A stretch of 64,000 nucleotides of DNA from positions 11,520-75,519 of the IMG/VR virus record IMGVR_UViG_2700988902_000001, one strand, 5' to 3'. This stretch comes from Angelvirus px29 (Duplodnaviria; Heunggongvirae; Uroviricota; Caudoviricetes; Straboviridae). The notes beneath the pieces were generated by a model. That model was not told the origin of the DNA, ran no database searches, and saw nothing but the letters and a program-made list of their open reading frames with translations. The translations under genes and the position numbers were made by a program. Below, in pieces: positions 4,803 to 22,332 of this stretch; the first letter of the stretch is position 1, and each line of letters opens with the position of its first letter.

Positions 4803-5774
4803 TTATTTCCATGTGGTTTCGAGTTCAAACGCGAGATCTGCCAGCAGATCAAACAGGTGAATCTCCATGTTCGGAATGTCGTTTGCGTACTTCTGGTTTT
4901 CCGCAATCAGCTTGATCATAACACGCAATCCAGCCGGTTTGATTTCAGTAAACAAACGCTCATAAAGCTTGGTAACGAAGTTATCATAATCGACAGTAAA
5001 CTTCGGAATCATAGCACGAATCGCGCCGAGTTTCTTAGTTCGAAGCATTTCGATTACTTCGTTCATATCCTCAGTTGCCTGAGTCGCTTTGGTCAAAACA
5101 CCTTCATCGATCTTGCCAGACTTGGCATAGCTATCGAGAGTTGTAATGGTACCGCGCAGATCTGGGAAATTCATCTTAACCAGTGCAGCGATAGCCTTAC
5201 GAGATTCTACTACAACACCTTCGATTTCGCAAATCTTTTCGCACCGAAGAATCATTTCTTTCATCATTCGGATCTTGTCTGCATCAGTCGGATTACCAAA
5301 TTCGATCTGACGGAAACGAGACTTGAGCGGCGCCGGGATTGCTTCGACATGATTACAAGTCATGATCACAGAACAGTTGAAACTGTATGCTTCCATCCAA
5401 GAACGAAGTTCTTCGTGAACTGCTTTCATACCCTTGTTATCACCTTCATCGATGATGATAACTTTGCCACCGGGCTTTTGTGTAGTAGTACACGCAAATG
5501 CGGTCAAGCTATTACGCAAGTCATCGATACGCAGTTTACCACCAGAGATAAACATCACTTCGGCGTCAATCTCGTTACACAGAACGCGAGCCATTGTGGT
5601 CTTACCAGTGCCGGGGCTCTTAGAGTAAAGCAGAATGTGTGGAATTCGACCAGAAGCAACAATACCTTTAAAACGCTCGATATCAGATTCAGGAAGAACA
5701 CACTCAGAAATCAGATTTGGTCGGAACTTTTGTTCCCACATAAACTCATTTGGATCAGTAACAGTCACAGTCAT
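4803..5774 (-). CDS. 44: Clamp loader large subunit, AAA+ ATPase (gp44)
   Basis: 323 aa. Walker A SPGTGKTT, Walker B IIIDEGD, RFC-like sensor motifs. Synteny. Confidence 0.9.
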   Translation of the reverse strand: MTVTVTDPNEFMWEQKFRPNLISECVLPESDIERFKGIVASGRIPHILLYSKSPGTGKTTMARVLCNEIDAEVMFISGGKLRIDDLRNSLTAFACTTTQKPGGKVIIIDEGDNKGMKAVHEELRSWMEAYSFNCSVIMTCNHVEAIPAPLKSRFRQIEFGNPTDADKIRMMKEMILRCEKICEIEGVVVESRKAIAALVKMNFPDLRGTITTLDSYAKSGKIDEGVLTKATQATEDMNEVIEMLRTKKLGAIRAMIPKFTVDYDNFVTKLYERLFTEIKPAGLRVMIKLIAENQKYANDIPNMEIHLFDLLADLAFELETTWK

Positions 5775-17844: not shown

Positions 17845-17933
17845 TTAGGTTTCCGTTGTGAGTGTATGGGAAAAATAAAAAACGAGTCTTTCGACTCGTT
17901 TCTATTGTACTGCTATTTAGTGTTTCGATAAAC

Positions 17934-18330
17934 TCAACCGAACAAAGAAAGTAGCTCGGTGTCTTCTTTTTTCAGATTGGCAACGATGTTAGCCAGCGCA
18001 GCATAGCGGATAGAACAACGACCTTTATTTACATCGATACCAGCTTCTTTCAGCGCAGACAACGGAATCGGACGAACGTTATCAAAAAAGATATCGTTGG
18101 TATTCAGTTCTTTGTCAGTCCAAGTGCCGGTGTAAACCTCGGTGATATCAGCGAAATAAGCTTTGTTCCCTTTGTCAACGATTGCGATGTGTTTTACCTT
18201 GTTGATGCGTTCGGCAGCACCGATAAAACCTTCGGCTTTCTTCTCTTTCAGCATACGCTCAAAGCTCAGACAGCCAGCAGTACCATCCATTTCGCGACTC
18301 GGGATTACAACGATAGTATCTTGTTTCATG
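17934..18330 (-). CDS. Hypothetical protein
   Basis: Probable true start MKQDTIVV (132 aa) with SD GAGGAAC. The track ORF is over-extended through the upstream promoter. Confidence 0.5.
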
Positions 18331-18355
18331 ATTTGTTCCTCAGCTTTGTTTCGAT

Positions 18356-18389
18356 AGAGCCATCTTATCATGATGGCTCTTTGTGTCAA
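18356..18389 (-). promoter_or_regulatory. Sigma70-like early promoter with the -10 region inside an inverted repeat
   Basis: Minus strand TTGACA-N16-TAAGAT. IR AGAGCCAT(c ttatcatg)ATGGCTCT brackets the -10. Confidence 0.55.
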
Positions 18390-18397
18390 CTAACTTT

Positions 18398-18700
18398 TCA
18401 GATTTTTTCGATTCTTGGACAACCAATCACAGACAGACCGGCGTTTTCGAGTTTCTGGATGCAACTGATAACATCATAGTGTTCTTCGATTACTGCATAT
18501 GCTTTTTTGTCTTCGAGGATCTCATTCAGATAATGATCTCGCTCGGGGTGAGTAAATCGCCGCATATGAGCACGATTCATCGCCTGTTGATTTTTCAGCT
18601 TGGTATAAGCAACGCGAGTTGTGATCCAAGCTTTCATCTGAGTTGGAGATACAAACACACATACAGTAACGGACATAATATTTTCCTCAGTTATCAACAT
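18398..18700 (-). CDS. Hypothetical protein
   Basis: 100 aa. Its start ATG overlaps the stop of the upstream prepilin-like mini-ORF (TAATG). Confidence 0.5.
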   Translation of the reverse strand: MLITEENIMSVTVCVFVSPTQMKAWITTRVAYTKLKNQQAMNRAHMRRFTHPERDHYLNEILEDKKAYAVIEEHYDVISCIQKLENAGLSVIGCPRIEKI

Positions 18701-18795
18701 TAGTGGAACAGTGCTGGGATAGATACGGATGCCAGAATTCCGATAATCGCAACAACAACCAACAGTTCAATCAGAGTAAAGCCTTTCATTTTCAT
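18700..18795 (-). CDS. Mini-ORF encoding a type IV prepilin-like N-terminal peptide (class III signal peptide + hydrophobic helix only)
   Basis: Hand translation gives MKMKGFTLIELLVVVAIIGILASVSIPALFH (31 codons, or MKGF.. from the second ATG). Canonical G|F cleavage site, E at +5, hydrophobic helix. SD GAGGA directly upstream. Stop TAA overlaps the ATG of the next gene (TAATG). Not in the ORF track (<60 aa). Confidence 0.55.
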   Translation of the reverse strand: MKMKGFTLIELLVVVAIIGILASVSIPALFH

Positions 18796-18852
18796 TCCTC
18801 GTTTGTTTTGATGTGTCCATCATAGCAGCACAAAAATCGGTGTCAAGGCACA

Positions 18853-18880
18853 AACAAAAAAAATCGCCCGAAGGCGATTT
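18853..18880 (-). terminator. Rho-independent terminator after nrdB
   Basis: Minus RNA AUCGCC-UUCG-GGCGAU followed by U8. Confidence 0.8.
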
Positions 18881-18882
18881 TC

Positions 18883-20013
18883 TTAAACTTCCAGTTCCTC
18901 AAAGAAATCTGCATCAAGTGTGGGATCAACTTGACCGATCAAATAGCTAGACAATTCTGCCTCTTGTGCAGCAACTTGAACGGAATCGGAGTTCAGCCAT
19001 TTGCGAATCCACGGCAGCGGATGTTTAATCGGTACGTTGACTTCATCCGGAACAGGCAAACCGACGGACCGCATACGACTACCAGTTAGATAATCGATGT
19101 AATCAATCATTTCGGCCAGACTCAATCCGGGAATACTTACGTTACCAAGCAAGTCTTTCGCCCATTCTTTCTCTTGTTCTGCTACCTCGATAAAAATAGA
19201 AACTGCTTTTGACTCAAGACGTCTAGCAATGTCAACCATTTCCGAGTCATCATCGCCGTTCTGCCAAGCACGAATGAGATACTGAGTCCCTTTCAAGTGC
19301 AATTGTTCGTCGCGAGCGATCAAGCGCATGATCTTGGCGTTACCTTCCATCAAACCACGCTCACCAAATGAGAATGTGCAAGCAAAGCTAACATAGAAAC
19401 GCATTGCCTCAAGAGCGTTTACGGCGTGCATTGCGAGATACATAGCTTCTTTTACATTGGTGAGCTGTGCAACTCTCAGCTCAGGAGAAAACACGGACTG
19501 ACGAAGCAGGTCGTAGGTTTTCAGCTCGCTAATCAGATCGTCGTAATACTGGGTTACAGAAGTTGCGCGAGCCATAATCTTGGCGTCAAGCAAGATCCTA
19601 TCAAAGACAGCAGACGGATCGACATACAGATTACGCATGATATGAGTATAAGAGCGACTGTGAATTGTCTCACTAAAACTCCAAGTCGTGATCCAAGTCT
19701 CAAGCGCAACATCAGAGACGATTGGCAAGAATACCAAGTTTGGTGCGCGACCTTGAACAGAGTCGAGCAGACTTTGATATTTCAGATTCTGAGTGAACAC
19801 ATATTGTTCTTGTTCGCTCAATCGAGAGTAATCAATCGCATCCTTAGACAGATCGACTTCCTCTGGTCGCCAGAAAAATGAGAGCGAACGTTCCGTTAAT
19901 TTATCAATCGCTGGGTGTTTTACTGTTTCATATCTGGCTAATCCCATTGCTTCGCCCAAGAACAACGGAGCTTTCATATGATCAACTACATTTTTATTAA
20001 ATACGGTATCCAT
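18883..20013 (-). CDS. nrdB: Ribonucleotide reductase small subunit (class Ia beta)
   Basis: 376 aa. Di-iron/tyrosyl radical R2 fold residues. Synteny with nrdA. Confidence 0.9.
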   Translation of the reverse strand: MDTVFNKNVVDHMKAPLFLGEAMGLARYETVKHPAIDKLTERSLSFFWRPEEVDLSKDAIDYSRLSEQEQYVFTQNLKYQSLLDSVQGRAPNLVFLPIVSDVALETWITTWSFSETIHSRSYTHIMRNLYVDPSAVFDRILLDAKIMARATSVTQYYDDLISELKTYDLLRQSVFSPELRVAQLTNVKEAMYLAMHAVNALEAMRFYVSFACTFSFGERGLMEGNAKIMRLIARDEQLHLKGTQYLIRAWQNGDDDSEMVDIARRLESKAVSIFIEVAEQEKEWAKDLLGNVSIPGLSLAEMIDYIDYLTGSRMRSVGLPVPDEVNVPIKHPLPWIRKWLNSDSVQVAAQEAELSSYLIGQVDPTLDADFFEELEV

Positions 20014-20039
20014 TTTTATTCCTTGTTATAGGGGCCGAA

Positions 20040-20055
20040 GCCCCTAGTGATAGAC
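20040..20055 (-). other. UUCG-tetraloop hairpin between nrdA and nrdB
   Basis: AGGGGC-UUCG-GCCCCU, no U-tract. Likely a processing/stability hairpin. Confidence 0.45.
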
Positions 20056-20061
20056 TTGATA

Positions 20062-22332
20062 TTAGACCTTGCACGTCTCGCATTCGGAAGAAGTATCTTC
20101 TGTGCCGTCTGCACCATCGCGGGTGTTTGAATAGTACATCGATTTAACACCATGTTTCTGTGCTCTTGACATATCTTTCAATACGATTTTCATCGGGATT
20201 TTCTCACCCGGATACACAGCGGGATCATAGTATGTGTTAGCACTGATCATCTGGTCTACGAACTTCTGCATGATGGCAACAATGTCAAGATATCCTTTCA
20301 TGCCACGCTTAGTCATTTTCCAAGCGGTTTCGTATTCGCTACCAAGCATATCAACCTCTGGAACGAGTTGATTAAACACGCCATCTTTCGATTGCTTTGT
20401 GCTCATTAGAGCGCGAGGTGGCTCAATTCCGTTTGTGCTGTTGGTGATCTGTGAACTACTCTCACACGGCATAAACGCGCTCAGTGTGTCATTACGAAGA
20501 CCATATTTCTTGATCTCAGCTCGCAACCATTCCCAATCCATTTTCAGATCATTCGGAACGATATTGTCAACATTCTTGTTGTACCAGTCAATCGGTAATA
20601 GACCATCAGCCCACTTAGTCTTGTGATGCCATTCATTTGCGCCACGTTCTTTAGCGAGTTCCATAGACGCAACAAGATTAGCAAATTGCATCATTTCCAT
20701 GGTACGATGAACAAGCTTGTTCGCGTTGCCGCTTGAATAGTCAACAAAGTTCTTTGCTAAGAAATAAGCAAAGTTTGTTACACCAATCCCAAGTGCGCGA
20801 CGCTTTTTGGCAGCAAGTGCTTGAACAACAGGATAATCCTGATAGTCAAGCAAGTTGTCCAGTGCTCGAACAGCAGCGCGAGCAACATTCAAAAAGTCTT
20901 CGTAACTCTCGATTGCACCAAGATTATATGCCGCAAGAGTACACAAAGCGATCTCGCCGGAACCATCACGCTTAACCGGATATGTCGGCAACGCGATCTC
21001 AATACACAAGTTGGACTGACGAATTGGCTCTTTGTACGGAGTAGCCGAGTTCACGTTATCAATAAACATCGGATAAATTCGACCTGTGCCAGTACGCTCT
21101 TGCGCAAACAGGTTGAAGATCTCAGATGCTTTGATACGCTTTTTGCGAACAAACGGTTCTTCTTCCAGCATTTCGTACAACTCTTTGAACTTAACGGGAT
21201 CTTTATAGAACAGATCGTAAAGCTCGCCATTTTGAACATCAGGACTAAACAGCGTGATATAATCATCGTTTTTCAGACGTTCCCAGAACATTTTATTGAT
21301 TTGGATACCGTAGTCCAAGTGTCTGATTCGATTTTCTTCCACACCCTTGTTGTTCTTGAGCACAAGGATTTTTTCAACTTCAAGATGCCACATCGGATAA
21401 TACAGAGTAGCAGCGCCACCACGTACACCGCCCTGTGAGCAGCTTTTTACCGCAGTCTGAAAGTATTTCCAGAATGGGATAATACCAGTATGACGAACCT
21501 CGCCAGAACGAATTCTAGAGCCTTCAGCACGAATAGCACCACCATTGATACCGATACCAGCTCTCTTGCTGATATAGTCAACGATAGAACTAGCGGTTGC
21601 GTTAATGCTATCGAGTTCATCACCACTTTCAATCTTGACGCATGAGCTAAACTGACGGGTCGGAGTACGAACACCAGCCAGAATAGGAGTCGGAAGACTC
21701 AGCTTGCCAAGAGAAGTGACGTCATAAAAGTTTTTAACTTTAGCGAGTCTATCTGTTTTTTCGTCTTGATGCAAGCACATTGCAACCAGCATATAAAGCA
21801 TTTGTGGAGTTTCGTACAACTCTCCGGTACTGCGATCTTTCGCCAAATACTTTTCTTTGAACTGCATTACACCAGCATAAGCCAGATTAAAATCGCGTTC
21901 GTGAATGATATAGTTATTCAGCTCACTGAATTCTTCATCAGTCCATTTAGTAGCAAGATCCGGATCATAGATGCCATCTTGTACCAGTTCGAGCGTATGG
22001 CGTTTCAGATGCGGAGGATCAAACTGATTATATGCTTGTTTGCGCAAGGCATACATTTGCAGACGAGCCGCAACATACTGATAATCAGGTTGTTCAATAG
22101 AAATTCTGTCTGCGGCAAACTTGATTGCCAGCTTTTGAATGTCTTTTGTGCTCATACCGTTAGTGATAGACGACATGATACCACTCATGATCTCAATCGG
22201 ATCAATTCGTGTGCCAGTGGTAGCAAACGTGATTATGCGATAAAGTTTCTGTTTGTCAAAGCTTTCTGTAATACCACTTGATTTTCTTACTAACATGTTA
22301 CCTCGTTGTGTTTGTATGGAGGAGAGATACAT
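20062..22332 (-). CDS. nrdA: Ribonucleotide reductase large subunit (class Ia alpha)
   Basis: 756 aa. N-terminal ATP cone, catalytic core, C-terminal redox cysteines (..ECETCKV). Confidence 0.95.
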   Translation of the reverse strand: MYLSSIQTQRGNMLVRKSSGITESFDKQKLYRIITFATTGTRIDPIEIMSGIMSSITNGMSTKDIQKLAIKFAADRISIEQPDYQYVAARLQMYALRKQAYNQFDPPHLKRHTLELVQDGIYDPDLATKWTDEEFSELNNYIIHERDFNLAYAGVMQFKEKYLAKDRSTGELYETPQMLYMLVAMCLHQDEKTDRLAKVKNFYDVTSLGKLSLPTPILAGVRTPTRQFSSCVKIESGDELDSINATASSIVDYISKRAGIGINGGAIRAEGSRIRSGEVRHTGIIPFWKYFQTAVKSCSQGGVRGGAATLYYPMWHLEVEKILVLKNNKGVEENRIRHLDYGIQINKMFWERLKNDDYITLFSPDVQNGELYDLFYKDPVKFKELYEMLEEEPFVRKKRIKASEIFNLFAQERTGTGRIYPMFIDNVNSATPYKEPIRQSNLCIEIALPTYPVKRDGSGEIALCTLAAYNLGAIESYEDFLNVARAAVRALDNLLDYQDYPVVQALAAKKRRALGIGVTNFAYFLAKNFVDYSSGNANKLVHRTMEMMQFANLVASMELAKERGANEWHHKTKWADGLLPIDWYNKNVDNIVPNDLKMDWEWLRAEIKKYGLRNDTLSAFMPCESSSQITNSTNGIEPPRALMSTKQSKDGVFNQLVPEVDMLGSEYETAWKMTKRGMKGYLDIVAIMQKFVDQMISANTYYDPAVYPGEKIPMKIVLKDMSRAQKHGVKSMYYSNTRDGADGTEDTSSECETCKV

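Follow-up and report, generated by a model that had tools for sequence, protein, structure and literature searches.

The DNA analyzed here (the window, a single stretch of 64,000 nucleotides) is from Aeromonas phage PX29 (GU396103; Straboviridae, Angelvirus), an Aeh1-like relative of T4. Positions 17900-20100 are 100% identical to the PX29 record. A preliminary description, made from the sequence alone, had placed it among KVP40-like phages, and this proved incorrect. Between nrdB (18883-20013, minus strand) and an ORF of 92-100 aa lies a mini-ORF (PX29p038, ADQ52757.1; 18700-18795, minus strand), which begins with ATG and spans 31 codons plus a stop; its product reads MKMKGFTLIELLVVVAIIGILASVSIPALFH. 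Both the ORF and its position between these neighbors are exactly as that description had them.

Upstream of the mini-gene are signals for its transcription. An intrinsic terminator after nrdB (AAGAAAATCGCC-TTCG-GGCGATTTTTTT; 18857-18884, minus strand) is also found in Aeh1, avDM12, Ah1, AsFcp_4 and phiAS5. It is followed by a sigma-70-type promoter, TTGACA-16-TATGAT with an extended -10 TG (18819-18846, minus strand), in which 11 of 12 positions match the consensus. In five relatives, the gene that we call A is preceded by a homologous promoter and 5'UTR. We infer that this is an early promoter serving both the mini-gene and the next gene, B, and that the mini-gene is probably expressed early. 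The surrounding early region is rich in small ORFs without assigned function.

Start codon of the mini-gene and its relation to neighboring genes

A Shine-Dalgarno element, GAGGA, is present at 18796-18800 (minus strand), in agreement with the preliminary description. It directly abuts the first ATG (spacer of 0 nt) and lies 6 nt from a second ATG at 18789. In all five relatives, the start of the mini-gene consists of GAGGA, a spacer of 6 nt (Aeh1, avDM12, Ah1, AsFcp_4) or 7 nt (phiAS5), and then ATGAAAGG, the equivalent of which in PX29 is the second ATG. Moreover, the form that begins there is predicted by gene callers on 5 metagenome contigs. Based on spacing, homology and these gene calls, the true coding sequence is probably 18700-18789 (minus strand), with a product of 29 aa, MKGFTLIELLVVVAIIGILASVSIPALFH, and a leader of three residues, MKG. 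Because of its distance from the Shine-Dalgarno element and the homology, the first ATG was rejected; it resembles a leftover from the stop context of gene A (compare GAGGAATGAAAAATG of phiAS5 with GAGGAATGAAAATG of PX29). A reading of the region as noncoding RNA was also rejected, as an Rfam scan of 18300-18950 gave no meaningful match and nothing near any gathering score.

Gene B (PX29p037, phrog_31756; 18398-18676, minus strand) is predicted to be cotranscribed with the mini-gene. Its annotated start is 18700, where the mini-gene stop codon TAA (18702-18700) overlaps an ATG (18700-18698). This TAATG overlap had been read as a sign of translational coupling. The overlap is present, yet coupling is probably not real, because the ATG at 18700 has no Shine-Dalgarno element, because gene B homologs in phiAS5 and avDM12 start at the position matching the ATG at 18676, and because in other phages the mini-gene is followed by a promoter or by nothing. 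A GAGGA at 18688-18684, 7 nt 5' of the ATG at 18676, marks the latter as the probable start. The arrangement is thus not conserved, and in Ah1 and AsFcp_4 the operon has no following gene at all.

The annotation of gene C (PX29p036; 17934-18389 region, minus strand) also invites revision. It is annotated as 145 aa from 18371, whereas its homologs start at MKQDTIVV (18329), behind GAGGAACAAATC. A sigma-70-like promoter at 18389-18362 overlaps the annotated start, which is probably too far upstream.

The product is a prepilin N-terminus without a globular domain

In sequence order, the peptide comprises a leader, MK(MK)G, then FTLIE, then LLVVVAIIGILASVSIPALF. Gly-1 is encoded at 18783-18781 and Glu+5 at 18768-18766; Phe+1, Gly+14 and Pro+22 are also in place, and the stop codon follows mature residue 26. 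Type IVa pilins and major pseudopilins typically have such helix-breaking residues at positions 14 and 22. From the position of the motif, a prepilin-peptidase cleavage site is predicted between Gly-1 (GGC) and Phe+1 (TTT), at 18778-18783 (minus strand). The peptide scored 36.9 bits with the Pfam model N_methyl (PF07963; curated cut-off 21.2, E=2e-9) and 37.6 bits with NCBIfam TIGR02532 (curated cut-off 16.3, E=1e-9). The Aeh1 form also exceeded the curated cut-offs of prepilin N-terminal models. This match is far from chance. A six-frame scan of the 64-kb window found no prepilin motif other than the mini-ORF. Hence the complete class III (prepilin) signal motif without a globular domain, recognized earlier from the sequence alone, is confirmed by profile searches.

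The features that define proteins of PF07963 and TIGR02532 are all there: the leader, G-1, F+1, E+5 and ~20 hydrophobic residues. With type IV prepilins and pseudopilins, the peptide shares a short basic leader, G-1, F+1, E+5 and a hydrophobic alpha1-N helix that includes G14 and P22. It can be aligned to residues 1-23 of alpha1-N in solved full-length type IV pilins. Proper type IV pilins and type II secretion system (T2SS) pseudopilins, in contrast, continue into alpha1-C and a globular beta-sheet domain, both absent from the PX29 protein. Mature forms of the latter and its closest kin have 24-26 residues, whereas the best bacterial matches have 117 or more. The setting differs as well: the gene resides in a lytic phage between nrdB and nrdD, and in place of a pilus or secretion gene set its neighbors are nrdA, nrdB, nrdD, nrdG and the small ORFs mentioned above. 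NCBIfam equivalog cut-offs were not reached (31.5 versus 88.85 for GspG, 34.5 versus 138 for PpdD, 35.2 versus 400 for PilA_Myxo), with matches confined to profile positions 1-36. Over the first 27 positions, the equivalog models PilA, PpdD, GspG, GspH and ComGC gave similar scores, so that a pilin origin is not separable from a pseudopilin origin. The mini-gene product is a member of the prepilin N-terminal domain family, not a pilin.

The motif itself is not new, because existing annotation already mentions it. The GenBank note for PX29p038 reads "similar to N-terminal part of fimbrial protein (pilin)", that for Aeh1ORF040c is similar, and UniRef names the PX29 and Aeh1 products prepilin-type proteins. 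Pilin or pseudopilin similarity is likewise flagged in GenBank for KVP40.0030 (PF00114), Aes508_086, ValKK3 ORF231 and PAK_P3 gp139. At the level of annotation, then, the earlier statement that no T4-like phage gene of this kind had been described was wrong. A literature search for studies of phage prepilins or pseudopilins found passing annotation remarks, such as that on ValKK3 ORF231, and no functional study.

The mini-gene is conserved and under purifying selection

Conservation of the reading frame had been proposed as a test of the mini-gene, and it passed. By tblastn and reading of the loci, we found the same mini-ORF (27-28 codons) between nrdB and nrdD in five relatives, Aeh1, avDM12, Ah1, AsFcp_4 and phiAS5, which span three genera. 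In every one, the ORF ends directly after the helix, at the same stop position. The products are 28 aa in Aeh1, avDM12, Ah1 and AsFcp_4, MKGFTLIELIVVVAILGILF(S/G)VVAP(A/T)IF, and 27 aa in phiAS5, MKGFTLIELIVVIAVLGIVAAILPKIF. The records of avDM12-TAAL, Ah1, AsFcp_4 and phiAS5 carry no annotation for this conserved gene, which has been overlooked by gene callers.

Comparisons of phiAS5 with the others gave dN/dS values of 0.08-0.21 (Nei-Gojobori), with changes at ~15/21 synonymous versus 10-15/~60 nonsynonymous sites (Fisher p=1.8e-5 and 1.9e-3). For PX29 versus the Aeh1 type, dN/dS was 0.5-0.7 and not significant (p=0.27), the C-terminal half being weakly constrained and tolerant of hydrophobic swaps. 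Across PX29 and the five relatives, the residues M, K, G-1, F1, T2, L3, I4, E5, L6, V8, V9, A11, G14, I15, P22 and F25 are invariant. Because the frame is conserved under purifying selection, the mini-gene is very probably translated.

The region between nrdB and nrdD can be viewed as a cassette of up to four genes: A (87 aa, phrog_23306), the mini-gene, B (~90 aa, phrog_31756) and C (131 aa, phrog_23814). All four are present in phiAS5 and avDM12. Aeh1 has A, the mini-gene and C; Ah1 and AsFcp_4 have A and the mini-gene; and PX29 has the mini-gene, B and C. The mini-gene is the only one of the four kept in all six phages. In PX29, gene A is lost and its terminator, promoter and 5'UTR are joined straight to the mini-gene (18796-18846, minus strand), as would be expected had the DNA between a pair of GAGGA Shine-Dalgarno repeats been deleted. 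Ah1 and AsFcp_4 carry another deletion, at an AAAAAG microhomology. It took out gene B and most of gene C but spared the mini-gene, whose stop codon now adjoins the final 12 codons of gene C (KEDTELLSLFG*). Two independent deletions thus stop exactly at the mini-gene borders.

These data bear on two other readings, in which a longer pilin-like phage gene is decaying and has left this remnant, or the ORF merely serves a neighbor as a coupling ORF or uORF. Longer phage homologs do exist, the mini-gene overlaps the stop codon of the upstream gene (ATGA) in Aeh1-type phages, and in PX29 an ATG coincides with its own stop. Yet the stop position is the same in three genera with omega ~0.1, and the mini-gene has been kept despite loss of the upstream gene in PX29 or of the downstream genes in Ah1 and AsFcp_4. 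The borders of the two deletions argue in the same direction, as does a second, independent lineage with the same format (the 33-aa form described below). We therefore regard a remnant or coupling device as highly improbable; conservation already largely refutes both a pseudogene and a coupling ORF.

Short prepilin-like ORFs recur in phages

With the 31-aa sequence as query, tblastn matched 166 phage records. Grouped by phage host, these included Synechococcus (49), Pseudomonas (37), Vibrio (32), Aeromonas (27), Acinetobacter (6), Xanthomonas (4) and Delftia (2); none of the 166 came from Escherichia or Klebsiella phages. The phage prepilin-like ORFs that we examined form a graded series of mature lengths, from 24-26 residues in the Aeh1 group through 38 in phiW-14 gp119, 53 in PAK_P3 gp139, 56-77 in KVP40, nt-1, ValKK3 and 1.081.O, and ~70 in Aes508, to 102 in Acibel004. 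The cyanophage ACG-2014f "pilin" totals 127 aa. The motif occurs in six PHROG families, five of which are of unknown function and one of which is called "pilin".

KVP40.0030 (phrog_13280), Aes508_086 (phrog_11263), PAK_P3 gp139 (phrog_10597) and phiW-14 gp119 resemble the PX29 product in having a leader, a GFTLIE helix, an early-region location and no known function. They differ in carrying a periplasmic tail of 12-50 residues, often with a Cys pair, where the PX29/Aeh1 form has none; the latter also lies at another locus and is not represented by a dedicated PHROG family. The PX29 peptide covers positions 1-30 of the 59-72 in the phrog_13280, 11263 and 10597 profiles rather than matching them whole, and as judged from these alignments its kinship to them is through the N-terminal helix only. 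The Cys pair in the tails of longer forms (Aes508, 1.081.O and metagenomic proteins of 45-50 aa) resembles a miniature pilin disulfide loop and implies that the tail is periplasmic.

An unrelated bare prepilin of 33 aa, MQKGFTLIELLIVLAIIGILASIVLPALKNLLF, is found on at least 51 metagenome contigs. One carrier is a 122-kb phage contig from a sewage metagenome, whose neighboring genes match phage families, including a virion protein. The 33-aa ORF (5001-5102 of its locus) is followed, after 26 nt, by a gene for a phrog_1383 "virion structural protein".

Two further records deserve comment. Asfd_1_157 (1776-2228 of its locus) is annotated as 150 aa with GFTLIE in mid-ORF; its probable start is an internal Met that would give a basic leader of ~19 residues, and the annotated N-terminus is doubtful. 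MT838545.1, a 5.1-kb "Bacteriophage sp." from human feces, contains three separate prepilin-like matches and may be a misclassified fragment that carries a pseudopilin operon.

We also scanned bacterial genomes for signs that the peptide mimics the host or was captured recently. The top 80 matches were to PVC-group bacteria, Pelagibacter, Patescibacteria and others; Aeromonas was absent from them. The helix is close to the pan-bacterial alpha1-N consensus and not specifically Aeromonas-like, so the target system cannot be named from it. Among the best 74 matches in bacterial genomes, 0 of the 71 complete ORFs had fewer than 117 mature residues. Within the sampled matches, the short format is a phage speciality. 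IMG/VR yielded mostly long DUF1559-type prepilin-like proteins of Planctomycete or Verrucomicrobial kind, the only mini forms there being those of Aeh1 and Ah1.

Might the helix simply be a small membrane peptide of pilin descent, acting as an anchor or as a membrane-active agent (in immunity, lysis timing or depolarization, as for type I toxins of like size) with no involvement of the peptidase or of type IV machinery? Its 25-26 very hydrophobic residues (mean Kyte-Doolittle 2.2-2.6) would suit such a role, as would the tolerance of hydrophobic swaps in the C-terminal half and a location among many other small early ORFs. But strict retention of G-1, F1, buried E5, G14 and P22 across saturated synonymous divergence would then be needless, and the host range is skewed toward bacteria with active type IV systems. 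We consider this explanation unlikely.

A possible membrane decoy for type IV filament assembly

Retention of G-1, F1 and a membrane-buried E5 would be costly for a generic transmembrane peptide and points to partners that read the pilin N-terminus. Candidates are the prepilin peptidase, the assembly platform, alignment proteins, neighboring subunits and sensors of the pilin pool. Aeromonas has Tap, Bfp/MSHA and Flp pili and a T2SS that depends on TapD, a peptidase common to the Tap pili and the T2SS.

We propose that the product acts as a processed membrane decoy. The peptide would insert in the inner membrane with its N-terminus inside, and the host prepilin peptidase TapD would cut after Gly-1 and N-methylate the new end, leaving a 26-residue stub in the membrane. 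This stub could then serve as a decoy for partners that recognize alpha1-N via F1 and E5, namely the assembly platform, alignment proteins and neighboring fiber subunits. Because it has no globular domain, it might block or destabilize fiber assembly, such that Tap or MSHA pili, the Exe type II secretion pseudopilus, or both would be disabled in the infected cell. The likely payoff would be exclusion of pilus-dependent competitors or shutdown of an envelope function, although what a strictly lytic myovirus would gain from blocking pili or the T2SS is conjectural. A leader of three residues is unusually short and counts against the model; the leaders MKG, MKRG and MKKG do occur, however, on long prepilin-like proteins of IMG/VR contigs. 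Taken together, the decoy is the mechanism that we put forward, tentatively, at somewhat less than even confidence.

Another idea is that the peptide competes with host prepilins for TapD and thereby lowers maturation of all pilins and pseudopilins. It has a perfect substrate motif, and TapD is shared by the Tap pili and T2SS. A cleavable substrate, however, is turned over rather than inhibitory, and in a genuine inhibitor one would expect Gly-1, invariant here, to have been lost. Competition of this sort is very unlikely to be the function.

The stub might instead imitate the pool of unassembled pilin, binding the transmembrane region of a PilS- or PleC-type kinase and so reprogramming pilin transcription, c-di-GMP or motility. 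Autoregulation of pilin through PilA and PilS reportedly requires conserved E5 and P22, and both residues are invariant in the phage peptides. In Caulobacter, a 17-aa transmembrane segment of PilA binds PleC TM1 and suffices for signaling, either as a truncation or as an added peptide (PMC7196804). Intramembrane PilA-PilS autoregulation, cited in PMC6058289, also speaks for this reading. On the other hand, a transcriptional effect would be slow relative to the lytic cycle. We judge signal mimicry to be rather improbable, if less so than competition for the peptidase.

Relation to known inhibitors and mimics

An effector consisting of alpha1-N alone, as in the decoy model, is plausible because of two precedents, the Caulobacter PilA transmembrane segment and PfsE. 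The 17-residue Caulobacter peptide ("CIP") is bioactive by itself and lowers PhiCbK susceptibility by 77% (PMC7196804). Like the proposed stub, it is an alpha1-N-only fragment active in the membrane, and it reduces both pilus function and infection by a pilus-specific phage. Yet it was made in the laboratory, as a truncation or synthetic peptide, from an Flp-type pilin of the host, whereas the PX29 stub is encoded by a natural phage gene, and the sequences are unrelated in detail. PfsE, a 30-aa protein of Pf filamentous phages, blocks type IV pili (T4P) via PilC for superinfection exclusion, and is thus similar in size and in origin (PMC8764522). It differs in that a YAWGW aromatic motif binds PilC; no prepilin motif is reported, and "pilin" has 0 occurrences in that paper (PMC8764522). 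The PX29 peptide has no Y or W, and thus no YxWGW motif of the PfsE type.

Other comparisons are more distant. Aqs1 and Tip (PMC13436744) are also small phage proteins that disarm type IV filaments, but they are soluble and cytoplasmic, bind the N2 domain of PilB, and have neither a membrane helix nor similarity to pilin. The archaeal provirus SNJ2 (PMC12426801), as is proposed for PX29, supplies a protein with a class III signal peptide to the pilus machinery of its host. The SNJ2 pilins are complete, however, and assemble into pili, whereas the PX29 product is too short for a pilin fold.

Implications

The mini-gene is real and selected, and among the short prepilin-like genes that recur in phages it stands at the extreme. 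Bare alpha1-N stubs (24-29 mature residues) and their longer phage kin may represent widespread, unrecognized effectors directed against type IV filaments. They would be processed by the peptidase and N-methylated, and would either poison assembly from within the membrane or spoof the pilin pool, giving lytic phages of Aeromonas, Vibrio, Pseudomonas and others a generic means to switch off T4P, T2SS or competence. This broader proposal strikes us as possible, though rather more likely wrong than right.

Were the stub indeed to disable type IV filament machines, no known natural inhibitor of pili and type II secretion would be smaller, and its mode of action, subunit mimicry, would be distinct from those of Aqs1 and Tip (PilB) and of PfsE (PilC). 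At least six PHROG families of unknown function, recurrent in large lytic phages that infect aquatic and opportunistic pathogens, would thereby be given a function, and a 25-residue peptide template would become available for anti-virulence agents against Aeromonas, Vibrio and Pseudomonas. Even otherwise, the mini-gene is a clear case of a phage protein of ~29 residues that is under selection and mostly missed by current annotation pipelines.
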